64,000 nucleotides of DNA. Source: a candidate division WWE3 bacterium (GTDB taxonomy: Bacteria > Patescibacteriota > WWE3 > JAPLWK01). Positions 18,767-43,984 of this stretch are shown piece after piece (the stretch's first letter is position 1; each line of letters starts with the position of its first letter). Made by a program: the position numbers and the translations under genes. The notes under the pieces were generated by a model. That model did no database searches. It was not told the DNA's origin and was given only the letters and a program-made list of their open reading frames with translations. The stretch covers positions 48,348 to 112,347 of the forward strand of contig JAPLWK010000010.1 of the NCBI GenBank assembly GCA_026396615.1, in the 5' to 3' direction.

Positions 18767-20208
18767 TTAATTATAATCGGCTTATCGTTTTAACTCTATT
18801 TTTTTCGGTAGTAATCGTTGGAATTCTGGGAGTAGTTCGCTATAACGACTTTAATTATTTAGGTTCTGTGCCCGCTTCGAATGCGCACTTCACTCTTAGC
18901 ATCATTCTTAAACGAGCCTTAAATCTTAATACTTATTACGGCGCCTCCGGGGTTGATTTAGCTAGAATCAACGGTGGTGACTATTTACCGGTTTACGCAC
19001 CAGGTTACAGTTTCGCGGCGGCTCTTCCGTACGGATTGCTTCAGATTTTTAATCATTTTTGGGTAAGATTTTTTAATCCGTTATCCGAATCAATATCGCT
19101 CTTTCTAGAAAGTACAGCCTTAGCTTTACCATCAATTTTATCTACAGCATTAATTTCAGTATTAATATATAAATTGTTACTTCACTTTAAAGTCTCAAAA
19201 ACAATCGCAGTCATTACCGCCTGGTCCTTCCCTTTTGCCACTTTTTTACTAGGGTACACCTCAACTACATATAACGGTCTGCTCGCGGCGAGCTTACTTC
19301 TGCTGGCTTTCTACTGGCTGGTGGTTCCGGAAAAATATAACTTGCGAATTCCACTCCTCGTAGGTTTACTTTTCGGAATGATCGCTAACACTGAATACGT
19401 AGTTGCCCTATGTTTTATACCTTCGCTTGTTTATTTCTATATTAAGACCCGTGATAAATATAAAACCGGCATTGTTGTGGCTGGTTTTATGGCGGGGATG
19501 TTGGCCTTAGGACTTTATAATAACGCCTTGTTTGGCAAGCCTTGGACTTTCGGTGAGCAATTTACAGGGACTGCTTTTAGAACTGGTGCAGATTTAACCA
19601 GCATTACTTTTTCAGGTAATTTATGGCAAAGTCTTTACGGAAATCTTTTATCACCAGCTAAAGGCCTAATTTTTCAAGCACCCCTTTCTCTACTGGCTGT
19701 ACCTGGATTAATTTACCTTTTTAAGCGTCGAAGATCGTCGGCCGTTCTGGTAATTTCCTATATTGCTATAGTAGCTTTAGTTTATGCTTTTTGGCATGAC
19801 TGGGGTGGTGGCTGGACTACTGGCCCTCGATTTTACACAGCAATTGTGGCCTTTTTAATTATTGCGGCAGGGTACTTTTTTTCAGAAATTAAACGCAAAA
19901 CATTAGTAGCCCCAGGCTTTTTTGGATTAATTTTATTCGGTGTTTTAGCTGGAGCCACCACACTACTTTTTGGTCCTCGCGATAAATTTTCCGCTAGTTA
20001 CGATGTTTCTAGATTACGCGTTATTCAAAGACTGGAGCACCTGTTTCCAAATCCGGTGTCGGTAAGTAGTTTAGCTCCATATATCCCCAAAACTTTTGGA
20101 GTATCTCTTTCGGCGTATCTAGTGTTGCTAACCACGTTAATACTGGGGTCATTAATTATTTTAATAGTTTTGTCTAGGCGAAACGTGGTTAGTACTTATG
20201 AAAAATAA
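18742..20208 (+). CDS. Polytopic membrane protein, GT-C-like candidate; tandem paralog A
   Basis: Roughly 45% identical over its full length to the next gene, including a shared loop motif GASGVD...PGYSF. 11-13 hydrophobic spans. Confidence 0.45.
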   Translation: METTICTMINYNRLIVLTLFFSVVIVGILGVVRYNDFNYLGSVPASNAHFTLSIILKRALNLNTYYGASGVDLARINGGDYLPVYAPGYSFAAALPYGLLQIFNHFWVRFFNPLSESISLFLESTALALPSILSTALISVLIYKLLLHFKVSKTIAVITAWSFPFATFLLGYTSTTYNGLLAASLLLLAFYWLVVPEKYNLRIPLLVGLLFGMIANTEYVVALCFIPSLVYFYIKTRDKYKTGIVVAGFMAGMLALGLYNNALFGKPWTFGEQFTGTAFRTGADLTSITFSGNLWQSLYGNLLSPAKGLIFQAPLSLLAVPGLIYLFKRRRSSAVLVISYIAIVALVYAFWHDWGGGWTTGPRFYTAIVAFLIIAAGYFFSEIKRKTLVAPGFFGLILFGVLAGATTLLFGPRDKFSASYDVSRLRVIQRLEHLFPNPVSVSSLAPYIPKTFGVSLSAYLVLLTTLILGSLIILIVLSRRNVVSTYEK

Positions 20209-21679
20209 ACCCGTTATTATTAGCTGGATTTTATTTTTAGCAGTTTTTATTGTCGGTGTAACTAGCGTAGTTGCCAACGACAACTTTCAGTTTTTAAGTT
20301 CCATACCTGTAGCTAATGCTAACTTAACTAAAAGTATCGTCTTACAACGGGTATTAAATATTGATAAATATAAAGATGCATCTGGAGTCGATGTAGTTAA
20401 GTTTAAAGGTCACTATTACTCAGCGTATCCGCCTGGTTATAGCTTTTTTGCAGTTCCTTTTTACGGTGTTTTACAGATCTTTAATTATGGTTGGGTTCAC
20501 CTGTTTAAGCCTTTGAATGGTGCAGAATCGAGGTTACTTGAGAGTTTGGCATTGGCACTCCCCTCTATTTTGTCACTTGCTTTAACATCTGTTCTCCTTT
20601 TTAAGTTGCTATACTTTTATAAAAATAAGCTTTGGGTTTCGGCTTTGGCGGCCTGGGCTTTACCATTTACCACATTTTTGCTTGGTTATCTGCCAACGGC
20701 GTTTTTTCATTTACCAGCAGCTTTTTTTCTATTTTTAGGTTTTTATGTACTCGTTACTTCCGAAAAGATAACTATTTTAAGATCGTTTGTAATAGGCCTG
20801 TCATTAGGATTAGTAGCGATAACTGAGTATGTTCCTGCGCTTTGTTTTATTCCCATTTTTTTGGTCTTTATTTATAAATATAGAGACTATAAAAAATCTT
20901 TATTAGTATTATTCGGTTTTCTAGTTGGTTTTTCTATTTTAGGTGCTTATAACTACAAACTTTTTGGAGCCCCTTGGAAATTCGGGGAAAGCTACGCTGC
21001 TACTTCTAATTCTGAAGCAACGTCATTTGGGATTGCCTTTACCGGGAACCCGATTACAGCTTTAAGTGGCAATTATTTATCTCGGATCAAGGGTGTGGTA
21101 ACAAACGCCCCACTTTTCATACTGGCAATCCCTGGTTTTTATTTTTTGCTGAAGCGCCAACGTAAAGATGGCACCTTAGCTTTAGCTGTAGTTTTAGTGG
21201 TTAGTCTTGTTTACGCCTTTTGGCACGATTGGGGTGGTGGTTGGAGTTTAGGGCCACGTTTTTACACAAGTTTGATGCCGTTTTTCTTTACAGCTATTGG
21301 TTTTTTTGTTGAACATTTTTATAGAAATAAGTTTGCTAAAACTTTATTAGCTATAATGTTGGCTATCGGTGTTTTTGTGGCTTTCTGGTCGCTGTCTTTA
21401 GGTCCTAGACTTCTTACACCTAAGGCCGAAGCGAATATAGGTATTGTTGCTACTCAAAGGGCTTCCAGACTTCCATTAATTTTAGAGGAAGGTTTTTCTA
21501 AAAATAATTTAGCCCCATTTATATTTGAAGCGGCTTCTGATTTACCGATAATTAGCAAAATAAATTTTTCAACACTTCTTGCGGGTTATTCTTTCTTAAC
21601 GCTTTTCGTTATAATAGGCTCCTTGCTTTTAATATTAAAAATCGCGAAACCTGATAAGGTTGCGCCCACTATTTTATGA
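20198..21679 (+). CDS. Polytopic membrane protein, GT-C-like candidate; tandem paralog B
   Basis: See 18742..20208. Shared WHDWGGGW and GPRFYT motifs near the C-terminus. Confidence 0.45.
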   Translation: MKNKPVIISWILFLAVFIVGVTSVVANDNFQFLSSIPVANANLTKSIVLQRVLNIDKYKDASGVDVVKFKGHYYSAYPPGYSFFAVPFYGVLQIFNYGWVHLFKPLNGAESRLLESLALALPSILSLALTSVLLFKLLYFYKNKLWVSALAAWALPFTTFLLGYLPTAFFHLPAAFFLFLGFYVLVTSEKITILRSFVIGLSLGLVAITEYVPALCFIPIFLVFIYKYRDYKKSLLVLFGFLVGFSILGAYNYKLFGAPWKFGESYAATSNSEATSFGIAFTGNPITALSGNYLSRIKGVVTNAPLFILAIPGFYFLLKRQRKDGTLALAVVLVVSLVYAFWHDWGGGWSLGPRFYTSLMPFFFTAIGFFVEHFYRNKFAKTLLAIMLAIGVFVAFWSLSLGPRLLTPKAEANIGIVATQRASRLPLILEEGFSKNNLAPFIFEAASDLPIISKINFSTLLAGYSFLTLFVIIGSLLLILKIAKPDKVAPTIL

Positions 21680-23127
21680 CTAAGGATTTACTAAAGTGGC
21701 AATCAATTAGCGTCGCATCGCGGTTTTTTTCTGTGGGGGTGGGGATTGCTCAAAGCATAATTTTGACGCGGTGGATTTTGTCGGTTGAAGAGTTTGGATT
21801 GATTGGCGTCATCGGGGCTGTGGGAGCGATGCTGGGAGTTTTTCAGCATTTAGGTTTGGCTTCTGGCACTACTCGCGAATTAGCTTACCGAGGCGAAAAA
21901 GATGCTTCTAAAGTTTTCATTTCATCACTGATTGCTCGTTACGCCATTTCATTACCACTGGCGATCGGACTTTTCATTTTCGCTGGTCGAATCGCAGCTG
22001 GATATCATCACATCGAAATGGCTGGTCCACTACAAATCTACGCAGTCATTTTACTACTTCAAGCCAGTCAAGATGTCTGTGGCTCAGTGCTTCAAGGTCT
22101 ACAGCGTTTTAAACATTTATTTTTATTTCAAGCATTTCTAGCAATTCTCAGCTTTTGCTTGTATGTTCCCTTAAGTCACTTCTTTAAATTCAACGGTTAC
22201 TTTCTAGCTTTGTCACTCGTCACTTTAGTTTCCGTTGTTGTTATGTGGGTTCTCGTCATTAAATCACTGCGATCTACTTGGAAATTCCCAACGAAGGCTG
22301 AGGTCATTCCTATTTTAAAAGATGTTTTTGCAGTTGGCTTGTCTATCTACATCGTTAAAATAATCTTCACGAACTGGGAAAATTTAGGAACAGTCTTTTT
22401 AGGTACGCAAGTTTCCTTAATTTCGATTGGTTTTTTTACTTACGCCATGGGCTATGCGTTTAAACTAATGACAGTGTCTGATGCTTTAACAGATGTAAAC
22501 CTTTCAGTTATGACCAAGCTTTACAAAGAAGAGCGGGATACTTTTAAACAGGTCTTTATGGAAAATTTTAATAAGATTTATTCTTTTGTGTGGCTCGCGG
22601 CGTTGACAGCGATTTTTTGGGCGCCACAAATCTTCTTTATTTTCGTTAAACATAAGTACGATTCATCTCTTCCGTACATTCTACCGTTGACGCTAGCAGT
22701 TTGGTTCTACTCATACATCAACTATTTAGGGGCGAGTATTATCGTTCCGGCAAAAAAAGTTATTCAGATGATTATTTACTATGTGGTCATGATTGCTAGT
22801 ACCGTGGGCTTTTATTTTATGGCTGGAGGCTTTATAAATGATAAAATATTGCTGATGTCTATTGCAATGGCTGTGGGGTCGGGGTTAGCGCTTATTTATC
22901 AAGTCGCAGTGATTCGTCACCATATCGGTTTTTGGGTCGTCAATAAAACAGTAATGTTAGTTACTTTGCCTTTATTACCGCTATTTATTCCTAGTCTGAC
23001 TGCGTCTGGCTTAACCACCAAAATATTGCTATCTGCTATTTGTTATTCGCTTTTTTTCATAGTCGTTGTCAAGCAAAACGTCGTCACTAAAGCGCAAATA
23101 AACAAACTGTTGCGGAGGTCGGCATGA
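21676..23127 (+). CDS. Wzx-like polysaccharide/oligosaccharide flippase (MOP superfamily)
   Basis: About 14 predicted TM helices, an N-terminal basic stretch followed by TM1 (ASRFFSVGVGIAQSIILTRWIL), and a size typical of Wzx. Confidence 0.6.
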   Translation: MTKDLLKWQSISVASRFFSVGVGIAQSIILTRWILSVEEFGLIGVIGAVGAMLGVFQHLGLASGTTRELAYRGEKDASKVFISSLIARYAISLPLAIGLFIFAGRIAAGYHHIEMAGPLQIYAVILLLQASQDVCGSVLQGLQRFKHLFLFQAFLAILSFCLYVPLSHFFKFNGYFLALSLVTLVSVVVMWVLVIKSLRSTWKFPTKAEVIPILKDVFAVGLSIYIVKIIFTNWENLGTVFLGTQVSLISIGFFTYAMGYAFKLMTVSDALTDVNLSVMTKLYKEERDTFKQVFMENFNKIYSFVWLAALTAIFWAPQIFFIFVKHKYDSSLPYILPLTLAVWFYSYINYLGASIIVPAKKVIQMIIYYVVMIASTVGFYFMAGGFINDKILLMSIAMAVGSGLALIYQVAVIRHHIGFWVVNKTVMLVTLPLLPLFIPSLTASGLTTKILLSAICYSLFFIVVVKQNVVTKAQINKLLRRSA

Positions 23128-25145
23128 AAATACTCATGATCGCTCCGACGCCATATTTTTCAGATAGAGGCTGTCATGTTCGAATATACGAGGAAGCAGA
23201 AGCTCTTAAACGAGCTGGGCACGAAGTGGTTATTACGACTTACCATTTAGGACGCGATCTTGGTGATTTTAAGATACTGCGGACGCCAAAAATACCCTGG
23301 TACAAAAAGACGGCTGCCGGGGCTTCTTGGCACAAGTTTTATTTAGACTTTTTTCTACTTCTGCTAACCGCCAAAACTCTAATTACTTTCAAGCCGGATA
23401 TTATTCACGCCCATTTGCATGAAGGAGCCTTTATCGCCATGATCCTGCGGCGATTCTTTAAACGACCAATTGTATTTGATTATCAAGGCAGCTTGTCTTC
23501 TGAATCTGTAGACCATCACTTCGTAAAGCCAAACAATCCTATTCTGAAGTTGGCGAAGTTTATGGAACAAAAAGTAAATGAGGGCGCGGAGTTTGTGATC
23601 ACCAGCGCGCCGAGGAATCTCAAAGTTGCTCATTTGGAAACTGTTTGTGACGGGGTTGATACCAACATCCTCAAGCCAGATTTATCAAGACATAAGCCTC
23701 AAACATTTGTTTATTTGGGCTTACTTGGTGAATATCAGGGCACTGATTTAATGTTACAAGCATTCGCAATCGTCATCGAGAAATTCCCGCAAGCACAGTT
23801 AATAATTGGTGGTTTTCCAAAGATCGAGTACTACAAAGATATGTCAAAGAAGTTAGGTATTGGGTCACAAGTTGAATTTGTGGGCGCGGTCGACTACTCA
23901 AAAATCGGGGACTTTTTAAACCGTGGTCAATTTGCTATCGCGCCTAAAGTTTCTACAACAGAAGCCAATCAGAAGATGCTAACTTACATGGCTTGCGGTT
24001 TACCGGTTGTGGCCTTTAATACTGAGATTAACGCTAAGATGCTAGGGTCCACGGAACTGCTAGCAACGCTTGGTGATGCTGAATCCTTGGCAAGCAGGAT
24101 GATCTTTTTGTTAACCCAAAGTCTGGAGCAAATTCTATTTTTAGGTGAAGCTAATAGAGTCCAGGCGGAAGAGAAGTTTAGCTGGGAAAGAACCGGTGAG
24201 AAAATTTTAGAAGTTTATAAAAAAGCTATTGAAGTATTCACGCAAAAGAAGTTAGCTCCAAAAACCGTCATCCAGAAATTTTTGGGTTTCCTGCCGAAAC
24301 TCTTAATATCTGGGGCACTTCTTCTTTGGGTGTTTCATAAATTCGATTTCAAATCTGCCCTCATCGCCGTTAAGGCCGCTAATATTTGGATTTTATTAAT
24401 TATTTTGTTATTAGTGGTCTTAAAAAATGTTTTCAGCAGCCTACGCTGGCAGGTGCTTCTGGCGGCACGCGGTCCTAAAGTGCCGTTCTTAATTTTGCTT
24501 AAGCTCTATTTTATTGGCGTCTTTTTTAACAATTTTATGCCAAGTAGCGTTGGCGGTGACATTGTTAAAGCTTATAAACTCTCAAAGTACACCGACCAGG
24601 CTTTTGACAGTTCTATTTCGGTGGTCATGGAGCGAGCGACCGGTCTCTTCGTTTTGATATTTATTGGTTTCACCGCACAGATGTTTGTTTATAAATTAAT
24701 CGGAGTGGCTATCTTTGTTGGTTTCCTGATTGCCTGCGGGATCGGTCTTTTGATAGGTGACAAAGTTTCTAAGATTCATCCTAAAATCAGAAAACTGTGG
24801 TTAGCATTCATTTTTTATAAAGACCGTCCCAAGGCTCTTGCTGCGGCTATCGGCTTATCGTTCCTAATTCAGGGACTTTCAATGGCGTTTCAATACCTAA
24901 CCTTTTCAGCTCTGGGTTATCATTTACCTTTTTGGCAGGCGATGGTGGTTTTCCCAGTCACTAATTTCGTTACCTTCTTGTCGTTGCTTCCTAATGGTTG
25001 GGGAGCGCAAGAGGCTTTGTATGCACTGTTATTCGGTCTAATTGGCATCAATAAGACTATCTCTGTTACTGTCTCGTTAGTTGGCCGTTTAGTCACACTC
25101 CTCGTCGCCCTACTGGGAGGTTTAATCTATGCCACAGAAAAATAG
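23124..25145 (+). CDS. Fusion: N-terminal GT1 (GT4-like) glycosyltransferase plus C-terminal flippase-like LPG_synthase_TM (UPF0104) membrane domain
   Basis: Residues 1-370 read as a GT1 Rossmann pair (KILMIAPTPYFSDRGCHVRIYEEAEALKRAGHEV ... YMACGLPVVAF). Residues 380-673 carry 7-8 TM helices with the UPF0104-type pattern (LRWQVLLAARG ... MPSSVGGDIVKAYKL). Confidence 0.6.
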   Translation: MKILMIAPTPYFSDRGCHVRIYEEAEALKRAGHEVVITTYHLGRDLGDFKILRTPKIPWYKKTAAGASWHKFYLDFFLLLLTAKTLITFKPDIIHAHLHEGAFIAMILRRFFKRPIVFDYQGSLSSESVDHHFVKPNNPILKLAKFMEQKVNEGAEFVITSAPRNLKVAHLETVCDGVDTNILKPDLSRHKPQTFVYLGLLGEYQGTDLMLQAFAIVIEKFPQAQLIIGGFPKIEYYKDMSKKLGIGSQVEFVGAVDYSKIGDFLNRGQFAIAPKVSTTEANQKMLTYMACGLPVVAFNTEINAKMLGSTELLATLGDAESLASRMIFLLTQSLEQILFLGEANRVQAEEKFSWERTGEKILEVYKKAIEVFTQKKLAPKTVIQKFLGFLPKLLISGALLLWVFHKFDFKSALIAVKAANIWILLIILLLVVLKNVFSSLRWQVLLAARGPKVPFLILLKLYFIGVFFNNFMPSSVGGDIVKAYKLSKYTDQAFDSSISVVMERATGLFVLIFIGFTAQMFVYKLIGVAIFVGFLIACGIGLLIGDKVSKIHPKIRKLWLAFIFYKDRPKALAAAIGLSFLIQGLSMAFQYLTFSALGYHLPFWQAMVVFPVTNFVTFLSLLPNGWGAQEALYALLFGLIGINKTISVTVSLVGRLVTLLVALLGGLIYATEK

Positions 25146-26817
25146 ATATGTTTACATATTACTTATAGTTTGTGTCGTTATTTCCGGATTGATTCTCGGA
25201 GGGCTTTTGCTTAGAGCTTTTACTGGTTTAGTCCCTTCGGATTTTTATTGCTACTACTATATTCCAAAGGCGGTTTTAAACTTAGTACGTCGGGAACACC
25301 CTTACATTAACTACGCTCCAATATTCCCCTACTTTTTCCCTCCAGCATCCATACTTCTTTTTAAACCATTAATCCTGCTTCCGATGTACCTAGCAAAAAT
25401 TGTTTGGTCACTAACAAACGCAAGTTTGATGATAACGTCAGCAATACTTGTTTCCAAGGTTTTTAAAAGGCTGTGGCTGTGGCCGATTTTGGTTTTTTTA
25501 GCTGTAATCTATTATCCTTTTCAATTTACGCTTACGGAGGGCCAGTTTAATATCATCCTTTTATTTGTTTATACTTTTGGGCTCTGGGTTTTAGTCAAAT
25601 GGAATCGAGTTTTGGGTAGTACTGTCGGAGGGGTGCTTTTAGCGATTGGTACGATAACTAAAGTTAGCCCACTGCTCATCATCGCCTATGCGTTTTGGAA
25701 AAAGCGTTGGCTGCTGTTAGTAGTTTCTCTTTTTACTGTAGTGGCGCTTTGCGGATTGGCAGAAATATATGTTAAATCCGGAATTAATAATTACTATTTG
25801 CATAACGTTTTAAAATATGTGTCTGATCAGGCAGCAACTCCTAGTTGGCGTGATCAATCGCTTCTCGGGTTTATTAAACGCTTTGATTTGCACATGGATG
25901 AATTTCATATCGCTGGTCACACTATCACCGAAAGTCGTGCTAGGAGTTTAATTTCATATGGGATTATTGGACTACTGATCGCGATTTTCCTAGGACTCGA
26001 TCTACGTCGTAAAAAAGGTGACTTGGACGTTGTTATTAGCTGCCTTTTCTTAACTACCATCGGAGTTCTAGGCACTGGGCTGGCTTGGTACCATCAATAT
26101 ACAATGCTTCTCCTACCGATTTGGGGACTGCTGCTTTTTAGCCTTTTTACTCTACGTAAACCTTATAACTATCTATGCTTGCTTATTTCAGTAATAACCT
26201 ACATTTTAACCTGTGCCAATTTAGAGGGTCGGTTTCTTGGCTTGTTACAGCCAAATATGTTTTATGGAGGGGTGATTTTAACGATATTTCTTCTTATCCT
26301 TAAAGGAAATCAACATTGGTTTAAAGCCGTCACCGCTAACGTTCCGGTTTTTAAAGTAAAAACAAGCCTATTAGTTGTTTTAGGGTTTATTCTAATAATA
26401 AGTGTACTTGTCGGTATTGGGCTTCCCAGGCTCGATCAAAAATTGAAAGAAGCCCGAGATGTTGACCGTCTGGTCGAAATTAATTACATGGGAAATATGC
26501 TCACCAACCATCAAGTAGAGTTTAAAATCGGATACTCTAACAGCATCCTCCGATCGGAAAAGCTTGATGAAGGCTACATTTTATTTGAAAAAGATCAGCA
26601 CATTAAAGTTCGCAGCGAGATCGCAATACTTTTTTTAGATCCAATTAATAACCACGATTATAATTATCAGTTTTCGTCTGCAGATGGTCATGAATTTAAA
26701 CTTTGGACCCATTTAGAAAGCGTAAAATACATCAGTATTTTTGGGAAATACTATTACTATAATCCTGACTCGCAAAGCCCTGGTCAATCTCTTATTCCAC
26801 AAATTGGAAACCTATGA
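25129..26817 (+). CDS. Polytopic membrane protein, DUF2029/GT87-like
   Basis: Multi-TM N-terminal domain with a TITKVSPLLIIAYAFWKKRW motif resembling GT87/DUF2029, plus a C-terminal soluble domain. Confidence 0.4.
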   Translation: MPQKNRYVYILLIVCVVISGLILGGLLLRAFTGLVPSDFYCYYYIPKAVLNLVRREHPYINYAPIFPYFFPPASILLFKPLILLPMYLAKIVWSLTNASLMITSAILVSKVFKRLWLWPILVFLAVIYYPFQFTLTEGQFNIILLFVYTFGLWVLVKWNRVLGSTVGGVLLAIGTITKVSPLLIIAYAFWKKRWLLLVVSLFTVVALCGLAEIYVKSGINNYYLHNVLKYVSDQAATPSWRDQSLLGFIKRFDLHMDEFHIAGHTITESRARSLISYGIIGLLIAIFLGLDLRRKKGDLDVVISCLFLTTIGVLGTGLAWYHQYTMLLLPIWGLLLFSLFTLRKPYNYLCLLISVITYILTCANLEGRFLGLLQPNMFYGGVILTIFLLILKGNQHWFKAVTANVPVFKVKTSLLVVLGFILIISVLVGIGLPRLDQKLKEARDVDRLVEINYMGNMLTNHQVEFKIGYSNSILRSEKLDEGYILFEKDQHIKVRSEIAILFLDPINNHDYNYQFSSADGHEFKLWTHLESVKYISIFGKYYYYNPDSQSPGQSLIPQIGNL

Positions 26818-28418
26818 AGTATTTACAGCCTTCTCGTAATTTAAGTTTATTTATCGCGGCAGCGTTTGTGTTTCTGGTAGCCTTCGGAGTTAGATTTTAC
26901 AACTGGCAAATTGAGGGAATAAATCCGGATGAACCCACCTGGCAACAACGGATCGAAAACTTTTCACTAGCTATTAAGAATCATGAATGGCAATACACTT
27001 TTCAATCACTGCACCCCGCTGTCACTCTAGATTGGCTCTCTTATATTGGTCGAGCTTCCTCAGGATTTAACTATATCCCACAGTATCACTATCCTTTCGA
27101 CACGTCCGACAACACCCCTGGTTTTACGGGTGATGACAGCCCGGCTCGCGGCTTTAAAGACCCTTTAGTATTTTGGACGGTTCACTCGTCTGAAGTTAAC
27201 GTTCTTATTTTGGTTAATGCTGCCGCCTGTTTAATGGTGTTTCTATTACTTTCGAAACTTGTTGATCGGAAAGCGGCTTTTTTGTCCGCACTACTAGTGT
27301 GTTTGGATTTTTATTACATCGCCTCCTCGCGGGTTATTCAGATGGATTCACTGCTAGCCTCGTTTGTGATACTAACGGCTTTGTGTGCGATTTTGTTTTT
27401 TAAATCAAAGAAAAGACTTTATTTGATACTTGCGGCTTTGTTCTCTGGATTAACAGTTCTAACAAAAGTAAATGGTGTACTAGTCTGCGGATTTACTTTA
27501 TTTGTTATAGCGACGCCATTTATTATCGATTTACTCAAAACCCGTCGATTAAAAACACAACTACTCCTTACTACGATTATTAATTTGGCCTTATACGGTG
27601 TGCTTTCTTTGACAGTGTTTTTTGTACTTTACCCAGCAATGTGGGTCCAGCCGATTCTAACGCTAAAAGATTTGGCGTACGGAATTTTTAACCGTGGTCT
27701 ACTTGAGGGTGGGGAATCAGTAGGTGGTACCTTCTTCTTGGGACGGGTGAGTAGTAACCCTGGTTTTGCTTACTATCCACTAATATTGTTAATTCGTTCC
27801 AATCCTTTATCGTTGGTTGCATTTGTAGCTGGTATTACAGCGGCCTTTATAAATACAATTAAAACCAAGAAAATTTCTACACATACTGGACTTACTATAT
27901 TATTTTTAATATTTTTTGTTATCTATTTAATTGGGATGTCTGCTGTTGCTAAAAAAAGTGAACGCTACATAATGCCAATATTCTTGCTTTTTGACATTTA
28001 CGCGGGGTTATTTTTGTACCAACTTCTTAAGAAAGTAGAAGTTAAATTCATAAATAAAGCCAAATTATATTTGATTATTATTCTAGTATTTTTTGGCCAG
28101 TTTATACTGGAGTTGTGCCCATTAAGTTGGCATTATGGGAGTTACTATAATCCACTGATCGGCGGAGCTAAAGTAGCGCAGCGTCTAACTACAACTGGGT
28201 GGGGTGAGGGGTTATTGGAAGTTGCAGATTACATAAATAGTGTCCCGAATTCCAAAAAAATGAGAATATCTACATGTTATAGTTATATCAACCAGATCCA
28301 AAGAAAACAGGATTTAGGCTTGTGGGAAGAGTATCAGCACTTAAAACCGCTTAAAACTGTTACAATTAACGGTATTGCATATGCGTATATCTACCAGGGT
28401 TTACACCCTCTCAAATAA
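26814..28418 (+). CDS. ArnT/PMT-like GT-C membrane glycosyltransferase-like protein
   Basis: PDEPTW acidic motif in the first loop. Polytopic. Extracytoplasmic C-terminal domain. Confidence 0.55.
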   Translation: MKYLQPSRNLSLFIAAAFVFLVAFGVRFYNWQIEGINPDEPTWQQRIENFSLAIKNHEWQYTFQSLHPAVTLDWLSYIGRASSGFNYIPQYHYPFDTSDNTPGFTGDDSPARGFKDPLVFWTVHSSEVNVLILVNAAACLMVFLLLSKLVDRKAAFLSALLVCLDFYYIASSRVIQMDSLLASFVILTALCAILFFKSKKRLYLILAALFSGLTVLTKVNGVLVCGFTLFVIATPFIIDLLKTRRLKTQLLLTTIINLALYGVLSLTVFFVLYPAMWVQPILTLKDLAYGIFNRGLLEGGESVGGTFFLGRVSSNPGFAYYPLILLIRSNPLSLVAFVAGITAAFINTIKTKKISTHTGLTILFLIFFVIYLIGMSAVAKKSERYIMPIFLLFDIYAGLFLYQLLKKVEVKFINKAKLYLIIILVFFGQFILELCPLSWHYGSYYNPLIGGAKVAQRLTTTGWGEGLLEVADYINSVPNSKKMRISTCYSYINQIQRKQDLGLWEEYQHLKPLKTVTINGIAYAYIYQGLHPLK

Positions 28419-30951
28419 AATAACAATTTTTCTTAAGTTTATTCCAATTAAAACTTATCTTCTTCTAGTGCTCGTGTTTGCGTTGGTAATCCGTTTATGG
28501 GGAGTGTGGCATGGGCTTCCCTATATTTATAGCGTTGATGAGCCGGCTCTTGTCCACAGCGTTTTAGGTCTGCGGTTTGACTTAAATCCTCATCATTTCG
28601 ATTGGCCGCATTTCCATTTCTACTTGTCGTATCTAGTCTTTGGGATCTTCTATAAAGCTCGGATTGCTTGGCAAGTTTGGGGTTGGAAGCCGGCTATGGA
28701 GGCGATGGCGCCGATTTTGTGGAATGACGGGGCCGTCTTCTACTTACTTTTAAGACTTTTAAGCTTATTTATGGGGGCGCTTACAGTTATTCCGGTTTAT
28801 TTAGCCTCTAAAGAAATTTTAATCAGCCCTAAAAAGGCTTTACTGGCAGCTTTAGTTTTTGCCCTAATTCCCTTTCACGTGGAGAACTCCAAATATGCGC
28901 TTATAGATGTCCCCGCGACTTTTTGGTGTGCTTGGTCACTGTGGTTTGCCTTAAAAACGGCTAGAAGGCCGTCATTACTAAATTATATACTGGCCGGTCT
29001 GTTTGGAGGCCTCGCTATGTCAACAAAATACAATGGTTTGTTAATTATACTTGTTTTGGTATTAGTTCATTTATCACGCCTTCCATTCGTTGAAACATTC
29101 ATATCTTTGATCAAACGAAAGTGGCGAAATATAGACATCGGAGGTTTACTAAAAGATTGGTGGAAGTTGGTTTTAGCTGGCGTTACGGCACTTGCCGCCT
29201 TTTTTGCCGGTACACCTTACGCACTTTTAGATTGGAAGGAATTTAGTCGCAGCGATACATCAATTGGTGCTTTTTGGCAATTAACTCGCTCCGGAAATAG
29301 ATTGGAATTGGCGGTTTTTGGTAGACTCGCCGATGCCCTTTTTAATAAAATTCTTTCAGGATACGGGTTCATTCCTTTAATTATAAGTTTAGTGGGTTTG
29401 TTTTTCGTTTTTAGACGCGGTAATAAATTACAGAGAGTAACCGGATTATTTTTCGTATTTTTCACTTTGTACGTGGGAAGCTCTGTGTTCGCTCCGATTC
29501 AAATTTTCATGCCATTATTTTTAGTTCTACCCAGCCTTTTTATACTAGGTCTTTTTCCGATTACAGATTTTATTAAGAAAGAATTTTTTGAAAACAACAA
29601 AGCTTGGAGAGTCGCATATCCATTACTGGTTATTACAGCGGTCACTCCTCTAGTTGCGGCGTCATTAAAGGTAGATTACTTATACACGTTTTTAGATACT
29701 CGTAATATTGCCAAGAATTTTATCGATTACGCAATTCCTAAAGGTAAAGTTATAGGAGTAGAAGGTGAGTATCAGCCGTTTTATGAAGGAACTCATCCGG
29801 TAATTGGAGTTCAGGCTTGGCGATACGACCCTCTTAGCCAGAAAAAGATTGAATACGTCGTTGTGAGCGGCGATATGGATTTGCGTGGGATTCGTGAGAA
29901 TTCAAAGTTTGGAGGGATACTCGAAAATTTGTACCCAATTTATAGTTACCAAAACTTTGGTGATCGGCTGGGCCCCAATTTATTTATTTATAAATTGAAC
30001 TATCCACTTAATAATCAATGGTGGCTAAATGAAAGTAAATTACCTAAACTTTCTGTTGACTATTTGACAGCTGATAATCACGAGTGGCGGGAGTCTATTC
30101 TACCTGCCGATTTAACCTACACGGTCGCGGTAACTGGAACTTGGGACTTTTCGGGTAAGACATCAGAAATCATGAAAACGCGAAGTGACTATTCATATCC
30201 GGTTAGTAAGGTCGGCGGACACTTACACGGTCTGGATTTGGCTGTTGCCGATTTGTTGTATCCATTTAAACAGGACTGTTCTGATTTTACGGTTTGCACA
30301 AATAGTGAAGCCGTAAAATCTCTTACAGAAAGTGGAATCGATGTGGTTAATCTGCCGGTAGACCCATCTTTCGCCGAAACAAAGACGGATTTAACAGCAG
30401 CGAAAATCCAGTATTCTGATGGTCAGAACATCTCTTATTCAGATGTTAAGAATAACCATTTAGCTTTCGTGAGCATTAATCCCGCTTCACCAGATTTTAC
30501 TCAAGCGACCATTTCGGCCTCTATTAAGACCGCAAAAGATAACAAGGCCGATGTTATTTTTGTTAATTTTAATTGGCTTAAAAGCCAGTCGCCGTCTAAA
30601 GAACTAGCTCATCTGGCAATTGATTCGGGAGCGACTGTAGTTACGGGAGAATCTTCAAGCGTAAACGGAGTGGAATTTTATAACGAACACTTTATATCTT
30701 ATGGCGGTGGCCAATTTGTAAGCTCTGCGACTAGTCCGGTTGATTTACAAGGACGGGTTGGTCCTGGAGTTACCTATGAGCTTTATTTCTTCGGTAATAG
30801 ATTAGTAGATATAGATTTTGGTTTAAACTACAGTGGCACCTACGATATTTATAGTGGATCCAGTTGCCAAGTATTTGGTGAAGAAAATAAGAATGTGCGT
30901 TTGAAAGTGCTTCAACAAATATCTATCGAGTCCGCAGCGTACATAAAATGA
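28375..30951 (+). CDS. Fusion: ArnT/PMT-like GT-C membrane domain plus C-terminal CapA/PGA_cap-like (metallophosphoesterase-fold) domain
   Basis: N-terminus has the VDEPAL loop motif and about 12 TM spans. The C-terminal 350 aa show CapA-like motifs: TVAVTGTWDFSG, ADVIFVNFNW, GATVVTGESSSVNGVEFYNEHFISYGGGQFVS. The start may lie downstream of the annotated ATG. Confidence 0.5.
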   Translation: MHMRISTRVYTLSNKITIFLKFIPIKTYLLLVLVFALVIRLWGVWHGLPYIYSVDEPALVHSVLGLRFDLNPHHFDWPHFHFYLSYLVFGIFYKARIAWQVWGWKPAMEAMAPILWNDGAVFYLLLRLLSLFMGALTVIPVYLASKEILISPKKALLAALVFALIPFHVENSKYALIDVPATFWCAWSLWFALKTARRPSLLNYILAGLFGGLAMSTKYNGLLIILVLVLVHLSRLPFVETFISLIKRKWRNIDIGGLLKDWWKLVLAGVTALAAFFAGTPYALLDWKEFSRSDTSIGAFWQLTRSGNRLELAVFGRLADALFNKILSGYGFIPLIISLVGLFFVFRRGNKLQRVTGLFFVFFTLYVGSSVFAPIQIFMPLFLVLPSLFILGLFPITDFIKKEFFENNKAWRVAYPLLVITAVTPLVAASLKVDYLYTFLDTRNIAKNFIDYAIPKGKVIGVEGEYQPFYEGTHPVIGVQAWRYDPLSQKKIEYVVVSGDMDLRGIRENSKFGGILENLYPIYSYQNFGDRLGPNLFIYKLNYPLNNQWWLNESKLPKLSVDYLTADNHEWRESILPADLTYTVAVTGTWDFSGKTSEIMKTRSDYSYPVSKVGGHLHGLDLAVADLLYPFKQDCSDFTVCTNSEAVKSLTESGIDVVNLPVDPSFAETKTDLTAAKIQYSDGQNISYSDVKNNHLAFVSINPASPDFTQATISASIKTAKDNKADVIFVNFNWLKSQSPSKELAHLAIDSGATVVTGESSSVNGVEFYNEHFISYGGGQFVSSATSPVDLQGRVGPGVTYELYFFGNRLVDIDFGLNYSGTYDIYSGSSCQVFGEENKNVRLKVLQQISIESAAYIK

Positions 30952-32630
30952 CACATAGAAAATTTAAATTATCATTAGTTTTTATTATTTTTGTCATCGG
31001 AATAATATTACGGGTATCTTATCTTCGACATGGTTTACCAGATTTTGAAGTTGATGATGAGGGTAAGTTTGCTAATCCGGCGATGACAATAACCTTTAAC
31101 CTACCTAATTTACTAAAGACCCGTAATTTAGAATTACTGAACACAGATTATTTTTATCCGCACCCACATGGCTTAACAAACACATTGGTCGTTGTATTTT
31201 CCGCTGTTACCGGGTTCTACAAATTAAGTGGAGTTGGTTCCCGCGTTCTCTCTCACGCGGATTTTATTTTTGTGGCTCGGCTGTTTATCGCTGTGGTTAG
31301 CGGATTTATACCACTGGTAATTTTTTGGTTACTTAAGAAGATATCGGGATTTAAAACTGCGATTATCGGGCTTTTAATTTCGGCACTTGGCTACTATTTT
31401 ATCTACTATTCTCACGTCGTATCGCCGTACCCGATCTGCGCTTTACTAGTGTCGTTGTTCCTATGGCGGTTTTATGAATTCATCGTTCAACCAAATCGGC
31501 GAAATTGGATATTTACTTCAATTGCATTAGGCTTAGTAGCTGGATTTAACTTTGGGGTGATAGTTTTTGCTATTCCAATCGGTCTAACTCTAATTTATTT
31601 GTGTTTAAATCAAGCCTTATCTCTAAAGAAAACAATTATATATTCCTTAGCGATGGGTCTAATCGTGGGTTTGGGATTTTTAATAATCTCGCCCCTGTCG
31701 GTTGTAAATTTTAGGATTACTTTAGCGGCTTTGAGTAACGTCTCTAACCTGCAAAATATCGGAGCGCCAAGCAGCGGTAAACTCCCGACTATTCTTGAAT
31801 ATTTTCTGGGGGTAAATCCGGAAATCATAAGCCTTCAGTTTTTGCGTCCGTATTCGATGGTTAATGCCTTTGGTTTACCGTTTGCAGTCTTGTCTTTGTT
31901 GTCGCTAGTCATTGCTTTGTTCTCTAAAAATATTTTTAGAATCTTTTTGAGTTTATCTTTTATATGCGCTTTGGCTTTTTACAGCAGTCATGGCAGCACT
32001 AATCTTCGCTGGCTGTTGCCATTTTTGCCCATTGTTGTCGTTTTAATGACGCTAAGTATTGCTGATTTTTCTAATTTGTTACGAAGTCAACGAGTCCTGA
32101 TTGCGTTAGTAATCGTGGGAGTTGTTTTATGCACCTCCTTATGGCAAGTCGCTTTCTTTTTACGATCGCATTCACTTCCTGACACCCGAGAATTAGCGCT
32201 ACAATCAATTAGGGGGGAGATATCCAAAGACGCGATTATTTTAAGACCATCATTTGATTCTCCGCCGATTTGGAAATATGGGTACGCAAATAATTTTGTA
32301 ATAAATCACCCCACGTATGGGTCTTCATCACAGGAGCAATTACCACCGGTACTATCCGATGTGTTTTGCGGGTTTAGTACCCTGAATAAAGAACGTTACC
32401 TTATTACAGTTGGAAGTGCCGCTAATTACGTAATCACGTCGCCTAGTTATTCTAACGAACATCCCATGACGGCAGGGATTTGGAAGAAATTTTATTCAAA
32501 TATCACGACTTGGCCTAAGGTTGGTCTTTTCTCACCAACGCTTGCTTCACCTATGACCGGAACTGAGGTAGGTGTCTACAAAGTGCCTAAAGACTTTTGT
32601 GGCCCTGAAACTTTTCTTTGCACCATTTAA
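30948..32630 (+). CDS. ArnT/PMT-like GT-C membrane glycosyltransferase-like protein
   Basis: DDEGKF loop motif. Polytopic. Paralog of 13344..15119. Last gene of the plus-strand operon. Confidence 0.55.
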   Translation: MTHRKFKLSLVFIIFVIGIILRVSYLRHGLPDFEVDDEGKFANPAMTITFNLPNLLKTRNLELLNTDYFYPHPHGLTNTLVVVFSAVTGFYKLSGVGSRVLSHADFIFVARLFIAVVSGFIPLVIFWLLKKISGFKTAIIGLLISALGYYFIYYSHVVSPYPICALLVSLFLWRFYEFIVQPNRRNWIFTSIALGLVAGFNFGVIVFAIPIGLTLIYLCLNQALSLKKTIIYSLAMGLIVGLGFLIISPLSVVNFRITLAALSNVSNLQNIGAPSSGKLPTILEYFLGVNPEIISLQFLRPYSMVNAFGLPFAVLSLLSLVIALFSKNIFRIFLSLSFICALAFYSSHGSTNLRWLLPFLPIVVVLMTLSIADFSNLLRSQRVLIALVIVGVVLCTSLWQVAFFLRSHSLPDTRELALQSIRGEISKDAIILRPSFDSPPIWKYGYANNFVINHPTYGSSSQEQLPPVLSDVFCGFSTLNKERYLITVGSAANYVITSPSYSNEHPMTAGIWKKFYSNITTWPKVGLFSPTLASPMTGTEVGVYKVPKDFCGPETFLCTI

Positions 32631-34620: not shown

Positions 34621-34690
34621 AAGATAATACTACCACTAAGTTGCTTTTCTAGTCCATATTTTTAAATAGATAACAGAGTTTAATTATTGC

Positions 34691-34696
34691 TATAAT
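34691..34696 (+). promoter_or_regulatory. Candidate extended -10 element (TGcTATAAT) 20 nt upstream of the DUF2079-like gene start
   Basis: TGCTATAAT lies in the divergent intergenic region. There is no convincing -35. Confidence 0.25.
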
Positions 34697-34715
34697 ATGC
34701 TGTTAACATTAATAA

Positions 34716-36973: not shown

Positions 36974-38488
36974 TTGGAACTTTTAAATATGGTCTATTTT
37001 CTTATTTTCTTAGCCACACTTTTTCCTCGAGTTTATAAAATAGGTTTTGATTTATTCAACACTGATGCCTTCTTTTGGAAAGAGAATACCTATAATTTCA
37101 TTGGTTTATTTGCTGATCACAGGTTTGCCGACATGGCCATCACCCACCACCCTGGCGTAACACTCATGTGGCTGGGAGGAATCGGGATGAAGATTTTTCG
37201 GGGCTTGTACTTTGTTGTCAAACATGTGCCGGCTCCAAATACTCAAGCCGTCGTTTTGTGGACAAACTTCTCCCAGAATTTACCGATCGCGCTTGTTTGC
37301 ACTGGGGCCGTCGCCGTCTCTTACTATTTAATCAAGCGGCTCTTTAATAATCAGCGTTTAGCTTTGGTTACGTCACTTCTGCTGGCGACTGAGCCGTGGT
37401 TGGTGGCTCATAGCCGAGTTTACAATACTGACGCTTTGATGACGTCTTTTATGTTTTTGTCGGTCTTAACTTTGTGGTTGGCTTTGTTGGAAACTAAATA
37501 CATTAAATGGGCGGTACTTAGTGGCGTCTTTGCTGGTCTCGCTTTGTTGACCAAAAGTATCTCGTTATTTTTAATTCCGTTTTTACTGTTAAGTGTTGGG
37601 GCATTTGTAATCTTTAAGAAGTTGTCAATTAAGAAGGCCATGACCATCGTGTCGACCGTTGTTGCAGCATGCGTGGCAACGTTTTTAGTCGTCTGGCCGG
37701 CGATGTGGACGAGTCCTGTGTCGACATTAAAGCTTTACTGGAACGGGATCTTCTTAGAAGGGGATACTCGGCTTAATTTACATAACATGTTTGGGCATCC
37801 AACCATGAACCCAGGGCCGATTTTTTACCCATTAGCTTTTCTATTAAGATTTACTCCAGAATTAATTGCCGCTTTTGCTATTGGCTTGATACTCTTGATA
37901 AAGAGGATTAATAGGAGAGAAGGAGACAAAGATGAAACCAGTTTGTTTTTATTACTATCTTTAGGATTTATAGTTTTCTATATGTTAGAAATATCGCTGG
38001 CAACTAAAAAATTGGATCGGTATTTGCTGCCGGTTGTTCCCTTCGTCGCCTTAATTGCGAGTTACGCTTTTGTGCAGCTAAAAAAGAAAATATTATTAAT
38101 TGTTTTAGGGGTAATATTAGCAATAAGGGTAATTGTTTTGGGTATATATCAACCGGACTATTTGGCTTATTATAACCCACTGCTTGGCGGTCCCACCGCT
38201 GGCTATAACTTTGATGGTGAATGGTGGGGAGAGGGGTATCACTTGGTTGGAAGTTGGATTAATGAGAAGTTAGAAGTTAGAGCGGTAGCGGCTTACGATA
38301 ATCGCCAACTGCGCCCTTTTGTTAAAGATAATATTGCAGTTTATGATGCTGGCGATAAAAAATTGGATGCTAATAAGGTTGATTTATGGGTATTAAAATA
38401 CAAAGATGGTGGTCGACAAGGTTTTCAGATTATAGATACTGTTAGCGTGGCTGGTTATCCGATGTGGGGAATTTACAAAAAGATTTAA
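36974..38488 (+). CDS. Polytopic membrane protein, GT-C (GT39-like) candidate
   Basis: Multi-TM with a first-loop HHPGVTLMWLGG motif and a YNPLLGG C-terminal motif shared with 7329 and 26814 (YNLASGG / YNPLIGG). Confidence 0.45.
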   Translation: MELLNMVYFLIFLATLFPRVYKIGFDLFNTDAFFWKENTYNFIGLFADHRFADMAITHHPGVTLMWLGGIGMKIFRGLYFVVKHVPAPNTQAVVLWTNFSQNLPIALVCTGAVAVSYYLIKRLFNNQRLALVTSLLLATEPWLVAHSRVYNTDALMTSFMFLSVLTLWLALLETKYIKWAVLSGVFAGLALLTKSISLFLIPFLLLSVGAFVIFKKLSIKKAMTIVSTVVAACVATFLVVWPAMWTSPVSTLKLYWNGIFLEGDTRLNLHNMFGHPTMNPGPIFYPLAFLLRFTPELIAAFAIGLILLIKRINRREGDKDETSLFLLLSLGFIVFYMLEISLATKKLDRYLLPVVPFVALIASYAFVQLKKKILLIVLGVILAIRVIVLGIYQPDYLAYYNPLLGGPTAGYNFDGEWWGEGYHLVGSWINEKLEVRAVAAYDNRQLRPFVKDNIAVYDAGDKKLDANKVDLWVLKYKDGGRQGFQIIDTVSVAGYPMWGIYKKI

Positions 38489-38491
38489 TAT

Positions 38492-39697
38492 ATGCGAATT
38501 ATCTGTTTATCAAATCAGCTCTGGGACTGGCCGCTGTGGACTAATAAGCGGCAAGTTATGTCTAGGCTTGCGAACCTGGGGCATGAAGTCATCTTCGTGG
38601 ATCCACCGATTAGGCTGCAGAAATTAGCGAAACAAATTAGTGAAGGAAAGTGGTCAGGCCAACGTCTTTTGACCGGGTCAAGAATTGTGAAAACAGAGTT
38701 TGGGGAAAACAAAGAAGTCTTAAATTACACTCCGATAACATTGTCATATTCTGAAGATCCAAATTTGGTTAGTTTTAATGTGGATCGGATAAATCGGTTG
38801 CGGGTTCAGCAGGTTGAACCCCTACGGTTGGGTCTAGATATGACTCAAGAAAAGACGGTGCTGTGGGTTTATAACGTTTCGATGCGCGAGTATGTTGATA
38901 AAATACCACATGATTACTTAATTTATGATTGCGTTGATAATTATCCGGCGATGGCGAATTATCAGCGGTTAGGATTGTCGGAAGCCGTCGCTAGTTGGGA
39001 AATTGAACTTGCCAAAAAGTCAGACCTGGTTTTTACATCAGCGCCCGGTCTTAAAAAGCGATTAAGCCAAATTAATCCAAAAACGTTCTTTATTCCTAAC
39101 GCTGGCAATTATGAATTATTCTCGTCCGCCAGTCGAGAGCGCACGCCAATGCCGCCAAGCCTTGAAAATATACCCAGGCCGATTATTGGGTTTACGGGAA
39201 CGATTGATGATTACAAGGTCGATGTTGAATTAGTAATCAAAGCGGCGAAGGCATTACCTAATTACTCGTTCGTTATTATCGGTCCGCATGGTGAGGCTGA
39301 TAAATCACCAGATCTTAAAAAGTTGACAGTCCTACCAAACATTCACCTACTACCACAAGTAAAATACGACGATCAAGTGCCTTTCTACACTTATTTTGAT
39401 GCTTTTATTATCCCGTACAGACTTAATGACTATACTATTGAGGGCTGCTTCCCCATAAAATTCTGTGATGCGCTGTCGTCCGGTCTTCCGGTTGTCGTCA
39501 CCAATTTGCCGGCTTACGCTGATTTTAAAGATGTTTGCTATATTGGAGACTCTGATGAAGAGTTTGTTAAAATGATAAAGCAGGCAGTTGACGAAAATTC
39601 CGAAGAGCGTTGTGAGTCGCGTCGCGCGATTGCCAAGCAGAATTCTTGGGATGGAAAAGTGGCCCGTCAGTTAAATATTATCAGTGAGAATCTATGA
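38492..39697 (+). CDS. Glycosyltransferase family 1-like (GT4-type)
   Basis: IICLSNQLWDWPLW...GHEVIFVDP N-terminal Rossmann-like region and a C-terminal IIGFTGTIDDYKVD...FVIIGP donor-binding-like region. Confidence 0.55.
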   Translation: MRIICLSNQLWDWPLWTNKRQVMSRLANLGHEVIFVDPPIRLQKLAKQISEGKWSGQRLLTGSRIVKTEFGENKEVLNYTPITLSYSEDPNLVSFNVDRINRLRVQQVEPLRLGLDMTQEKTVLWVYNVSMREYVDKIPHDYLIYDCVDNYPAMANYQRLGLSEAVASWEIELAKKSDLVFTSAPGLKKRLSQINPKTFFIPNAGNYELFSSASRERTPMPPSLENIPRPIIGFTGTIDDYKVDVELVIKAAKALPNYSFVIIGPHGEADKSPDLKKLTVLPNIHLLPQVKYDDQVPFYTYFDAFIIPYRLNDYTIEGCFPIKFCDALSSGLPVVVTNLPAYADFKDVCYIGDSDEEFVKMIKQAVDENSEERCESRRAIAKQNSWDGKVARQLNIISENL

Positions 39698-40425
39698 GGC
39701 GACTTGAAATTGACATGCCGGTTTATAACGAAGAAGTAGATTTGCCGAAGAATATTCCGGTTTTATATGATTTTTGCGTTGCTAATTTACAGAATTATGA
39801 TTGGTCAATTAAGATTGTTGACAATGCTTCCAAAGATAACACTTGGAATGTCGTTTCTGAGTTGTCACTAAAGTATCTCGGGAAAGTAAGCGGTCTTAAA
39901 CTTGATCGCAAGGGTCGAGGTTGGGCGTTGCGACAAGCGTGGACGACGTCTAAGGCTGACTATGTATCCTACATGGACATTGACTTGTCTTCAGACCTCG
40001 CGACTTTTCCGAAACTGCTCCGTCTTTTGGATGACGGGTACGATATGGCTGTCGGGTCCCGAAACATGCGAGAGTCCGAAGTCATCGGTCGAACGCTGCT
40101 GCGAGAAATCATGTCACGGACTTACATTACCCTCGTTAAATTAATGCATGGCACGCATGTTTCCGATACCCAGTGTGGTTTTAAGGCCTTACGCCGCAGT
40201 GCTTTCATAAAAGTTGAGCCGGTGATTGAAAATAATTTGTGGTTTTTTGATTCGGAAATGGTGATTTTGTTTGAAAAAGTGAGCTTTAAAGTCAAAGATG
40301 TTCCGATCAAATGGGTTGATGACCGTCATACTACGGTAAAAATTGCCAAGGACTCTTACGAGGAATTTAGCGGTCTTACGCGTCTTCTTAGAACTAAACC
40401 TTGGAAGGCTTTAACAACTTCATAA
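39694..40425 (+). CDS. Glycosyltransferase family 2
   Basis: MPVYNEE and IVDNASKDNT motifs, plus a DxD-equivalent YMDIDLSSD. Confidence 0.7.
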   Translation: MRRLEIDMPVYNEEVDLPKNIPVLYDFCVANLQNYDWSIKIVDNASKDNTWNVVSELSLKYLGKVSGLKLDRKGRGWALRQAWTTSKADYVSYMDIDLSSDLATFPKLLRLLDDGYDMAVGSRNMRESEVIGRTLLREIMSRTYITLVKLMHGTHVSDTQCGFKALRRSAFIKVEPVIENNLWFFDSEMVILFEKVSFKVKDVPIKWVDDRHTTVKIAKDSYEEFSGLTRLLRTKPWKALTTS

Positions 40426-43515: not shown

Positions 43516-43542
43516 TTGCTATAAATTGTATACTAAACACTT

Positions 43543-43980: not shown

Positions 43981-43984
43981 ACCT

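Follow-up and report, generated by a model that had tools for sequence, protein, structure and literature searches.

Glycosyltransferases of the GT-C class build much of the cell envelope, and their choice of acceptor is often set by extra domains that face outward. The MIR domain of eukaryotic PMTs and the carbohydrate-binding modules of mycobacterial EmbC and AftD help to recognise the acceptor. The CapA/PgsA enzymes (Pfam PGA_cap, PF09587) form a family whose biochemistry is poorly understood: PgsA affects the D/L ratio of poly-gamma-glutamate (PMC6029982), and in the lasso-peptide epimerase MslH a single substitution of D11, E44, N87, H88, H259, H261 or H295 abolishes epimerase activity (PMC10406935). 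In the DNA analysed in this work, a stretch of 64,000 nucleotides (nt) from an uncultivated WWE3 bacterium of the candidate phyla radiation (CPR), Patescibacteria (assembly GCA_026396615.1, contig JAPLWK010000010.1, positions 48,348 to 112,347; hereafter the window), the two kinds of protein are joined. A single gene at 28375..30951 of the forward strand, recognised from its open reading frame (ORF), its Pfam matches and its identity to an NCBI protein, encodes a GT39/PMT-like GT-C glycosyltransferase (residues 1–545) that continues into a degenerate CapA (PGA_cap)-like domain (residues 546–858). Such an accessory domain had not been seen on a GT-C enzyme before, and the fusion is confined to a single small lineage of the CPR.

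The reading frame opens with a TTG codon at 28375, closes with the TGA at 30949–30951 and translates to 858 amino acids (aa). The true start is probably the ATG at 28381, two codons downstream, giving 856 aa, because the NCBI protein has that length and the orthologues begin at this point (MRIS/MTIK). The NCBI entry, MCX6784079.1, comes from a candidate division WWE3 metagenome-assembled genome (MAG), is 100% identical to the fusion protein and carries the product name phospholipid carrier-dependent glycosyltransferase. The gene overlaps its upstream neighbour by 38–44 nt and its downstream neighbour by 4 nt (ATGA), and the overlapping frames on both sides indicate an operon. The peptide strings quoted in an earlier note on this DNA are all present in the translation (VDEP, residues 54–57; VAVTGTWDF, 584–592; DVIFVNFNW, 726–734; GATVVTGESS, 752–761; YGGGQFV, 776–782).

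Within the N-terminal part, Pfam matched PMT (PF02366) to residues 99–238 with an E-value of 8.1e-16 (58.8 bits, cut-off 22.7) and also returned PMT_2 (PF13231) at 2.1e-9 (38.3 bits, cut-off 26.1). The Pfam matches, hydropathy, Foldseek and the helices of an AlphaFold model delimit a polytopic GT-C membrane module at residues ~20–438 (28432..29688, forward strand). About 13 transmembrane helices were counted in the model up to residue 438, and the module is predicted to have its N-terminus inside and its C-terminus outside. The catalytic acidic pair of the VDEP motif, D55-E56 (28537..28542, forward strand), is placed in the first extracytoplasmic loop; both residues are identical in 56/56 GT39-like relatives and present in the window protein. 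A further ~25 residues are conserved at or near 100% among the same relatives and all are intact here, the residues kept in the window protein including R40, N71-H79, R96, Y123, R127, K218, Y219, D286, W301, Q302 and D441-R443. The module is followed by an extracytoplasmic alpha/beta domain (residues 439–545; 29689..30009, forward strand), defined by the AlphaFold model and by the ends of the GT-only homologues. This domain belongs to the GT39-like family itself, the GT-only homologues stopping at window residue 541–549. Since these homologues, which are ~500 aa long and number hundreds in Patescibacteria, align to window residues ~16–545 and then stop, the fusion consists of a complete GT39-like enzyme with a 313-residue extension.

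The full-length AlphaFold model (predicted local distance difference test, pLDDT, 87.9; predicted template modelling score, pTM, 0.77) contains a second alpha/beta domain after residues 439–545. Foldseek matched the N-terminal part of this model to STT3 (E 1.7e-10), ALG12, ArnT (5F15), PglB, Pmt4 and ALG9, and found no solved chain matching both the N- and C-terminal parts. The pattern of conserved residues identifies the N-terminal part as an intact GT-C_A glycosyltransferase of the GT39/PMT-like group. The polytopic GT-C domain with an acidic VDEP loop motif proposed in the earlier note was recovered by Pfam, hydropathy and the model alike. Its description as ArnT-like holds at the level of the superfamily and fails beyond it, as the best Pfam family is PMT; the ArnT equivalog (NCBIfam NF009784) was rejected, with 27.6 bits against a cut-off of 567 and a match limited to residues 126–234.

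The extension begins with a junction segment (residues 546–580; 30010..30114, forward strand) that was delimited by alignment with the fusion orthologues and standalone CapA relatives. The segment is invariant within the fusion clade at N547, W549, W550, L551, H569, W571 and R572, and corresponds to the juxtamembrane stretch of standalone CapA-family proteins. By this alignment, the N-terminal membrane anchor of the standalone proteins is replaced here by the GT-C module. Residues 581–858 (30115..30948, forward strand) form a degenerate PGA_cap/calcineurin-like domain of the metallophosphoesterase fold, as judged from Pfam, AlphaFold, Foldseek and a census of active-site residues. PGA_cap was matched in two stretches (E 1.3e-14; 54.8 bits, curated cut-off 27), the better of which aligns residues 693–783 with profile positions 158–253 of 255; Metallophos (PF00149) gave no match at E<=1 in the Pfam scan of the fusion protein. 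When a profile built from the C-terminal domains of five fusion proteins was searched exhaustively, 6806 relatives were recovered at E<=1e-3. The best standalone matches reached an E-value of 4.6e-44 and covered profile positions 10–280 of 312, so the homology runs across the whole domain and far beyond chance. The best standalone relatives are proteins of 320–410 aa in which a full PGA_cap domain follows a membrane anchor at the N-terminus; the closest are anchored CapA proteins of CPR bacteria, among them a CapA-domain protein of Candidatus Woykebacteria. A word-indexed search with the C-terminal alignment returned one weak match and missed the query's own family, and a sequence search of the PDB with the single domain gave nothing significant, MslH being reached by profile alone.

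When modelled alone from 104 aligned sequences, the C-terminal domain was predicted with a pLDDT of 90.5 and a pTM of 0.91. Its best PDB matches in Foldseek are MslH structures (E 3.9e-15; TM-score 0.66–0.67), followed by 5'-nucleotidases, a YmdB-like phosphatase, Mre11 and Vps29, and the predicted fold is that of a calcineurin-like metallophosphoesterase. No hydrophobic membrane segment is present past residue 431. Two cysteines, C635 and C641 (30277..30297, forward strand), stand out in the alignment; they are present in all five fusion proteins and in 96 and 97, respectively, of 99 standalone relatives, and would form an extracytoplasmic disulfide. The C-terminal domain is probably extracytoplasmic, on the same membrane face as the active side of the GT-C module, because the number of helices is odd, no hydrophobic stretch comes after residue 431, the relatives are ectodomains tethered by an anchor, and both cysteines are conserved. 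The extracytoplasmic CapA/PGA_cap domain of metallophosphoesterase fold that had been proposed for residues of about 500–858 is therefore present by Pfam score, predicted fold and MslH match, with its location deduced as above.

The state of the active site was assessed in an alignment of the five fusion domains with the 99 closest standalone relatives, in which 11 metal-binding or catalytic positions were drawn from the motifs GD, NxE, NNH, HWGxE, HxH and GN. Any one position is conserved in 91–97 of these 99 proteins. The window protein keeps 0/11, with T589, D626, L628, V662, D663, P664, N733, S737, S760, S762 and Q780 in their place, so that GD has become GT, NxE DxL, NNH VDP, HWGxE NWLxS, HPH SSS and GN GQ. 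The four fusion orthologues have lost 10, 11, 10 and 8 of the positions, and the NNH and HWGxE motifs are additionally shortened by deletions in the fusion domains. The lost positions include the equivalents of all seven MslH residues named above. The replacements vary from one fusion protein to the next (TSTSD, LVFNS, NDTDN, STDNT), which indicates that no substitute site has been fixed at the motif positions, and the alignment of the five domains revealed no conserved replacement set of polar residues. The Pfam score of 54.8 bits compares with 172–255 bits for single-domain active relatives. From the alignment, the C-terminal domain is most likely a pseudoenzyme from which all metal-binding and catalytic residues have gone. 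The strings taken in the earlier note as CapA hallmarks do sit at the family's motif positions, while the functional residues within them are replaced. Among the 99 standalone CapA-family relatives, three (P0144, P0153 and P0181) also lack 7–9 of the 11 positions; catalytically dead CapA-like domains seem to arise repeatedly and are not unique to the fusion clade.

The fusion is rare. In a collection of 5.8 billion proteins, those carrying PF09587 together with PF02366 or PF13231 fall into five clusters at 90% identity; the five come from independent samples, are 50–57% identical and share the same architecture and a conserved junction. Scans of 185,579 GTDB species representatives with the junction pattern and with N-terminal invariant patterns found no fusion and returned only GT39-only relatives, matching up to residue 542, and a metagenome scan recovered just the known P0004 and P0005 loci. 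In the exhaustive search, the window clade is the sole GT-C fusion among the 150 best representatives. An unfused precursor, in which a standalone capA would come after a GT39 gene, was absent from 17 loci of the closest non-fusion homologues, and four standalone CapA relatives lie in housekeeping surroundings with no consistent glycosyltransferase link, one adjoining a beta-lactamase-fold gene. No description of the GT-C::PGA_cap architecture was found in the literature on PGA_cap/PF09587 and Patescibacteria GT-C enzymes. The suggestion that the combination is not a described architecture is thus upheld, and the search for the same fusion in other genomes that had been proposed with it yielded five clusters of one clade.

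The other architectures among the same 150 representatives comprise standalone and tandem PGA_cap proteins and fusions of PGA_cap with Memo, Peptidase_S11 or Big_2, one of the Peptidase_S11 fusions adding VanY; proteins with such fused or tandem active domains include P0122, P0123, P0149, P0209, P0245, P0263, P0179 and P0193. Peptidase_S11 is a D-Ala-D-Ala carboxypeptidase, and these fusions together with VanY hint at a peptidoglycan-peptide substrate for this PGA_cap branch. One fusion orthologue, on a 19,307-bp ENA contig and belonging to the cluster of P0004, is split into products of 184 and 653 aa (P0291 and P0293), a break that is probably a sequencing frameshift.

The architecture is best read as a glycosyltransferase using polyprenyl-phosphate-linked sugars, with an extracytoplasmic former enzyme domain as an acceptor-binding or scaffold module, and this reading, drawn by analogy, is considered reasonably probable. 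Within it, the non-catalytic nature of the domain is held with high confidence and any specific role with much less. By analogy with PMT, ArnT and STT3, the GT-C part would take a sugar from a polyprenyl-phosphate-linked donor and pass it to an acceptor at the membrane's outer face. The operon's small GT2 enzymes would make this donor, and its flippases would carry it across. The C-terminal part would represent a CapA-family enzyme of the CPR type, its ectodomain complete and its anchor swapped for a glycosyltransferase, with the fold, hydrophobic core and cysteine pair retained and the metal-binding and catalytic residues lost. The dead ectodomain would then act as a non-catalytic accessory on the outer face, most likely binding or positioning the acceptor, or docking partner proteins; a cell-envelope glycan, a glycolipid and a protein are candidate acceptors.

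Several points weigh against this reading. The ligand-binding or scaffold role of the C-terminal domain is drawn from analogy, the sample consists of only five known sequences, and the CapA-like domain is the fastest-evolving segment of the operon, which also fits a domain being lost. Among the five orthologues, identity is 59–68% in the membrane module and 60–72% in the native outer domain (residues 439–545), compared to 31–41% in the CapA-like domain; between the window and one orthologous locus (L002) the CapA-like domain is 33% identical and the other operon products are 41–79% identical. There are about 10 clade-specific invariant residues, the seven of the junction segment together with H616, K677 and F806, and most of them therefore fall in the junction and off the body of the domain.

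The same observations bear on the possibility that a capA-like gene was fused by accident, ceased to function and is carried along as a decaying appendage under little or no selection, a course of events that is considered unlikely. The complete loss of the active site, the high rate of evolution relative to every other part of the operon and the tiny size of the clade would all be expected of such a remnant. However, a 310-aa stretch free of constraint should have gained stops or frameshifts and lost its similarity at the 59–72% identity seen elsewhere in the protein, whereas all five orthologues keep a full-length domain with 31–41% identity and a fold predicted at a pLDDT of 90. The ORF is undisrupted within the domain, and structural glycine and proline residues, the hydrophobic core positions and the cysteine pair are invariant across the five fusion domains. 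The pattern of substitution points to a constraint that has loosened without vanishing, which is what a structural or binding module would show and junk sequence would not. Near-identical variants offered too few differences for a ratio of non-synonymous to synonymous substitution rates (dN/dS), with 6 nt between L004 and L022 and 0 between L002 and L003.

Equally unlikely, as a variant of the acceptor-binding or scaffold module, is a domain that binds no acceptor and serves as a protein–protein scaffold assembling the neighbouring GT-C enzymes, the upstream PMT and the downstream PMT_2. Eukaryotic PMTs function as dimers, and Vps29 is a catalytically inactive metallophosphoesterase fold that acts as a scaffold in retromer; Vps29 is also found among the fold matches of the C-terminal domain. 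The order PMT, fusion, PMT_2 never varies, and reading frames overlap, which would suit such an assembly, but in the window three extra genes part the fusion from the PMT_2 gene.

A more specific proposal, by which the dead ectodomain would keep the ancestral groove, read a peptide or gamma-glutamyl component of the envelope and so steer the GT-C module to peptidoglycan or a wall-linked polymer, is regarded as rather less likely again. The hint towards peptidoglycan stem peptides arises because active domains related to this one occur in fusions with D-Ala-D-Ala carboxypeptidases and VanY. If true, it would represent a new form of pseudoenzyme-guided acceptor selection in the GT-C glycosyltransferases of CPR bacteria.

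The earlier note had envisaged an enzyme with two activities, coupling glycan transfer to a phosphoesterase-like or polymer-anchoring function. A bifunctional protein combining sugar transfer with a metal-dependent phosphoesterase, or with a peptide or poly-gamma-glutamate epimerase, acting on the same substrate is in line with the PGA_cap match above threshold, the confidently predicted metallophosphoesterase fold, the probable placement of both domains on one side of the membrane and the enzymatic nature of the active relatives (MslH, PMC10406935; PgsA, PMC6029982). It is nevertheless very unlikely, given that all 11 metal-binding or catalytic positions are altered in the window protein and 8–11 of them in the orthologues, that the substitutions are unconserved among the five proteins with deletions in NNH and HWGxE, that single substitutions at the equivalent MslH positions abolish activity, and that no conserved set of polar replacements was found in the five domains. 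Neither a coupled phosphoesterase-like activity nor an epimerase of the MslH type is likely with such an active site. Polymer anchoring is not a known activity of CapA, capsule anchoring in Bacillus anthracis being performed by CapD, although a non-catalytic role in binding a polymer or acceptor remains compatible with the domain.

The gene encodes one genuine polypeptide, and an assembly or gene-calling artefact joining two adjacent genes can be dismissed almost with certainty: although the sequences stem from MAGs and metagenome contigs and one ENA orthologue is split, that split sits within the GT-C membrane module and away from the domain junction, the frame is continuous, with the junction sequence NYPLxNQWWL conserved, in each of five divergent versions sampled from NCBI, JGI, Logan and ENA, and the CapA part lacks the N-terminal anchor found in every standalone relative.

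The operon is syntenic in four orthologous loci (L001–L004), and the fusion always lies in the same glycosylation operon. The common order is three GT2 genes, two genes for polytopic proteins of ~490 aa, a Polysacc_synt_3 flippase, a GT4::LPG_synthase_TM fusion, a PMT and the CapA-like fusion; in L002, on a contig reaching further, the fusion is followed by PMT_2, GT4, GT2 and a ribonucleotide reductase gene. Pfam and synteny identify the conserved members in the window, all on the forward strand: the Polysacc_synt_3 flippase (21676..23127), the 673-aa GT4::LPG_synthase_TM protein (23124..25145) and the 534-aa PMT-type GT-C protein upstream of the fusion (26814..28418). The GT4::LPG_synthase_TM gene has the same position in the four orthologous loci; LPG_synthase_TM is an MprF-type flippase-like domain, and the protein may synthesise and flip a glycolipid. 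The upstream PMT neighbours the fusion in all orthologous loci and is a distant paralogue of it (28% identity). The PMT_2 GT-C, GT4 and GT2 genes that come directly after the fusion in L002 are found at 36974..40425 (forward strand), behind the three genes already mentioned, which occupy 30948–36920 (a weak PMT_2 match, a 677-aa polytopic minus-strand ORF and a DUF2079 gene). A further addition relative to L001–L004 is a GT87 (PimE-like) gene at 25129–26817, before the upstream PMT. A Pfam scan of 43 window ORFs detected no capB or capC (CapB/PgsB, CapC/PgsC), the orthologous loci likewise gave none, and the window contains no second PGA_cap gene; membership of a poly-gamma-glutamate synthesis system was rejected on the lack of capB and capC.

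The operon is part of a glycosylation island of ~40 kb (221–40425) that holds at least 12 ORFs with GT-C matches (PMT, PMT_2, GT87, DUF2079, Glyco_transf_22), four polytopic ORFs lacking a Pfam match and with 9–12 hydrophobic segments each (1408–3015; 4883–6868, minus strand; 20198–21679; 32587–34620, minus strand), four GT4, four small GT2 and one flippase. This density of GT-C paralogues is unusual for a small CPR genome. Beside an intact 228-aa GT2, a 165-aa ORF at 18269–18766 aligns with no more than the C-terminal half of the GT2 profile (72–166 of 168); it could be a duplicate that was truncated, or a pseudogene. After the operon, the window carries the anaerobic ribonucleotide reductase NrdD and a radical-SAM activase (40561–46807), where the syntenic position of L002 (16086–22184) carries an ATP-cone/Ribonuc_red_lgN/lgC reductase and CobA/CobO/BtuR; the adjacent isoleucyl-tRNA synthetases (IleRS) of the two loci are 31% identical and probably of different types, and it looks as though housekeeping genes there were replaced by non-orthologous types. 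A second, smaller surface-polysaccharide cluster at 54195–58982 comprises a Polysacc_synt flippase, GT4, GT2 and Wzy_C (O-antigen ligase/polymerase-like). A family X DNA polymerase (HHH_8, pol-beta thumb and PHP domain) at 60664–62505 is followed by a LemA gene at 62510–63061, with genes for tRNA-Asp, tRNA-Gly and tRNA-Val near 60664–63061 on the minus strand.

The fusion protein thus appears to carry an accessory that was drawn from the CapA/PgsA enzyme family and later lost its catalytic function, which makes it a clear case in nature of a pseudoenzyme with the CapA fold. It may also offer a way into the surface glycans of uncultivated Patescibacteria, in which the envelope mediates an episymbiotic lifestyle. 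The PGA_cap match should not be annotated here as capsule or poly-gamma-glutamate synthesis, nor as a phosphoesterase, because the catalytic residues, the capBC partners and the domain's own anchor are all missing.

When compared with described systems, the island as a whole resembles the actinobacterial lines for lipomannan and lipoarabinomannan assembly, in which a cytoplasmic GT4, a polyprenyl-phosphate-sugar synthase of GT2 type, a flippase, the GT87 enzyme PimE and further GT-Cs take part. The island shares with these lines GT4s, small GT2s, flippases, a GT87 and its 12 or more GT-C paralogues, although its host belongs to Patescibacteria/WWE3 and the likeness is one of gene content only. 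The C-terminal domain resembles Vps29 in having a metallophosphoesterase fold with no working metal site; Vps29 is a cytosolic, eukaryotic protein with no specific sequence relationship to it, and a scaffold role here would be by extension. Towards the CapA/PgsA family, of which MslH (PDB 8GQ9) is the one solved member and the nearest fold, the domain shows whole-domain homology, the calcineurin-like fold, an outer location and the cysteine pair, and differs in its lack of catalytic residues, capB/capC partners and a membrane anchor of its own. The glycosyltransferase part shares with bacterial GT39/PMT-like and ArnT-type GT-C_A enzymes the polytopic module, the acidic pair in loop 1, invariant Arg, Lys and Tyr residues and a small outer C-terminal domain, past whose normal end the fusion adds the 313-residue CapA-like domain. 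While its accessory is a CapA-family former enzyme, found on no other GT-C in the searches made, the fusion follows the same design as the GT-C enzymes with appended outer domains, the MIR domain of PMTs and the carbohydrate-binding modules of EmbC and AftD, in which a GT-C core is joined to an accessory.

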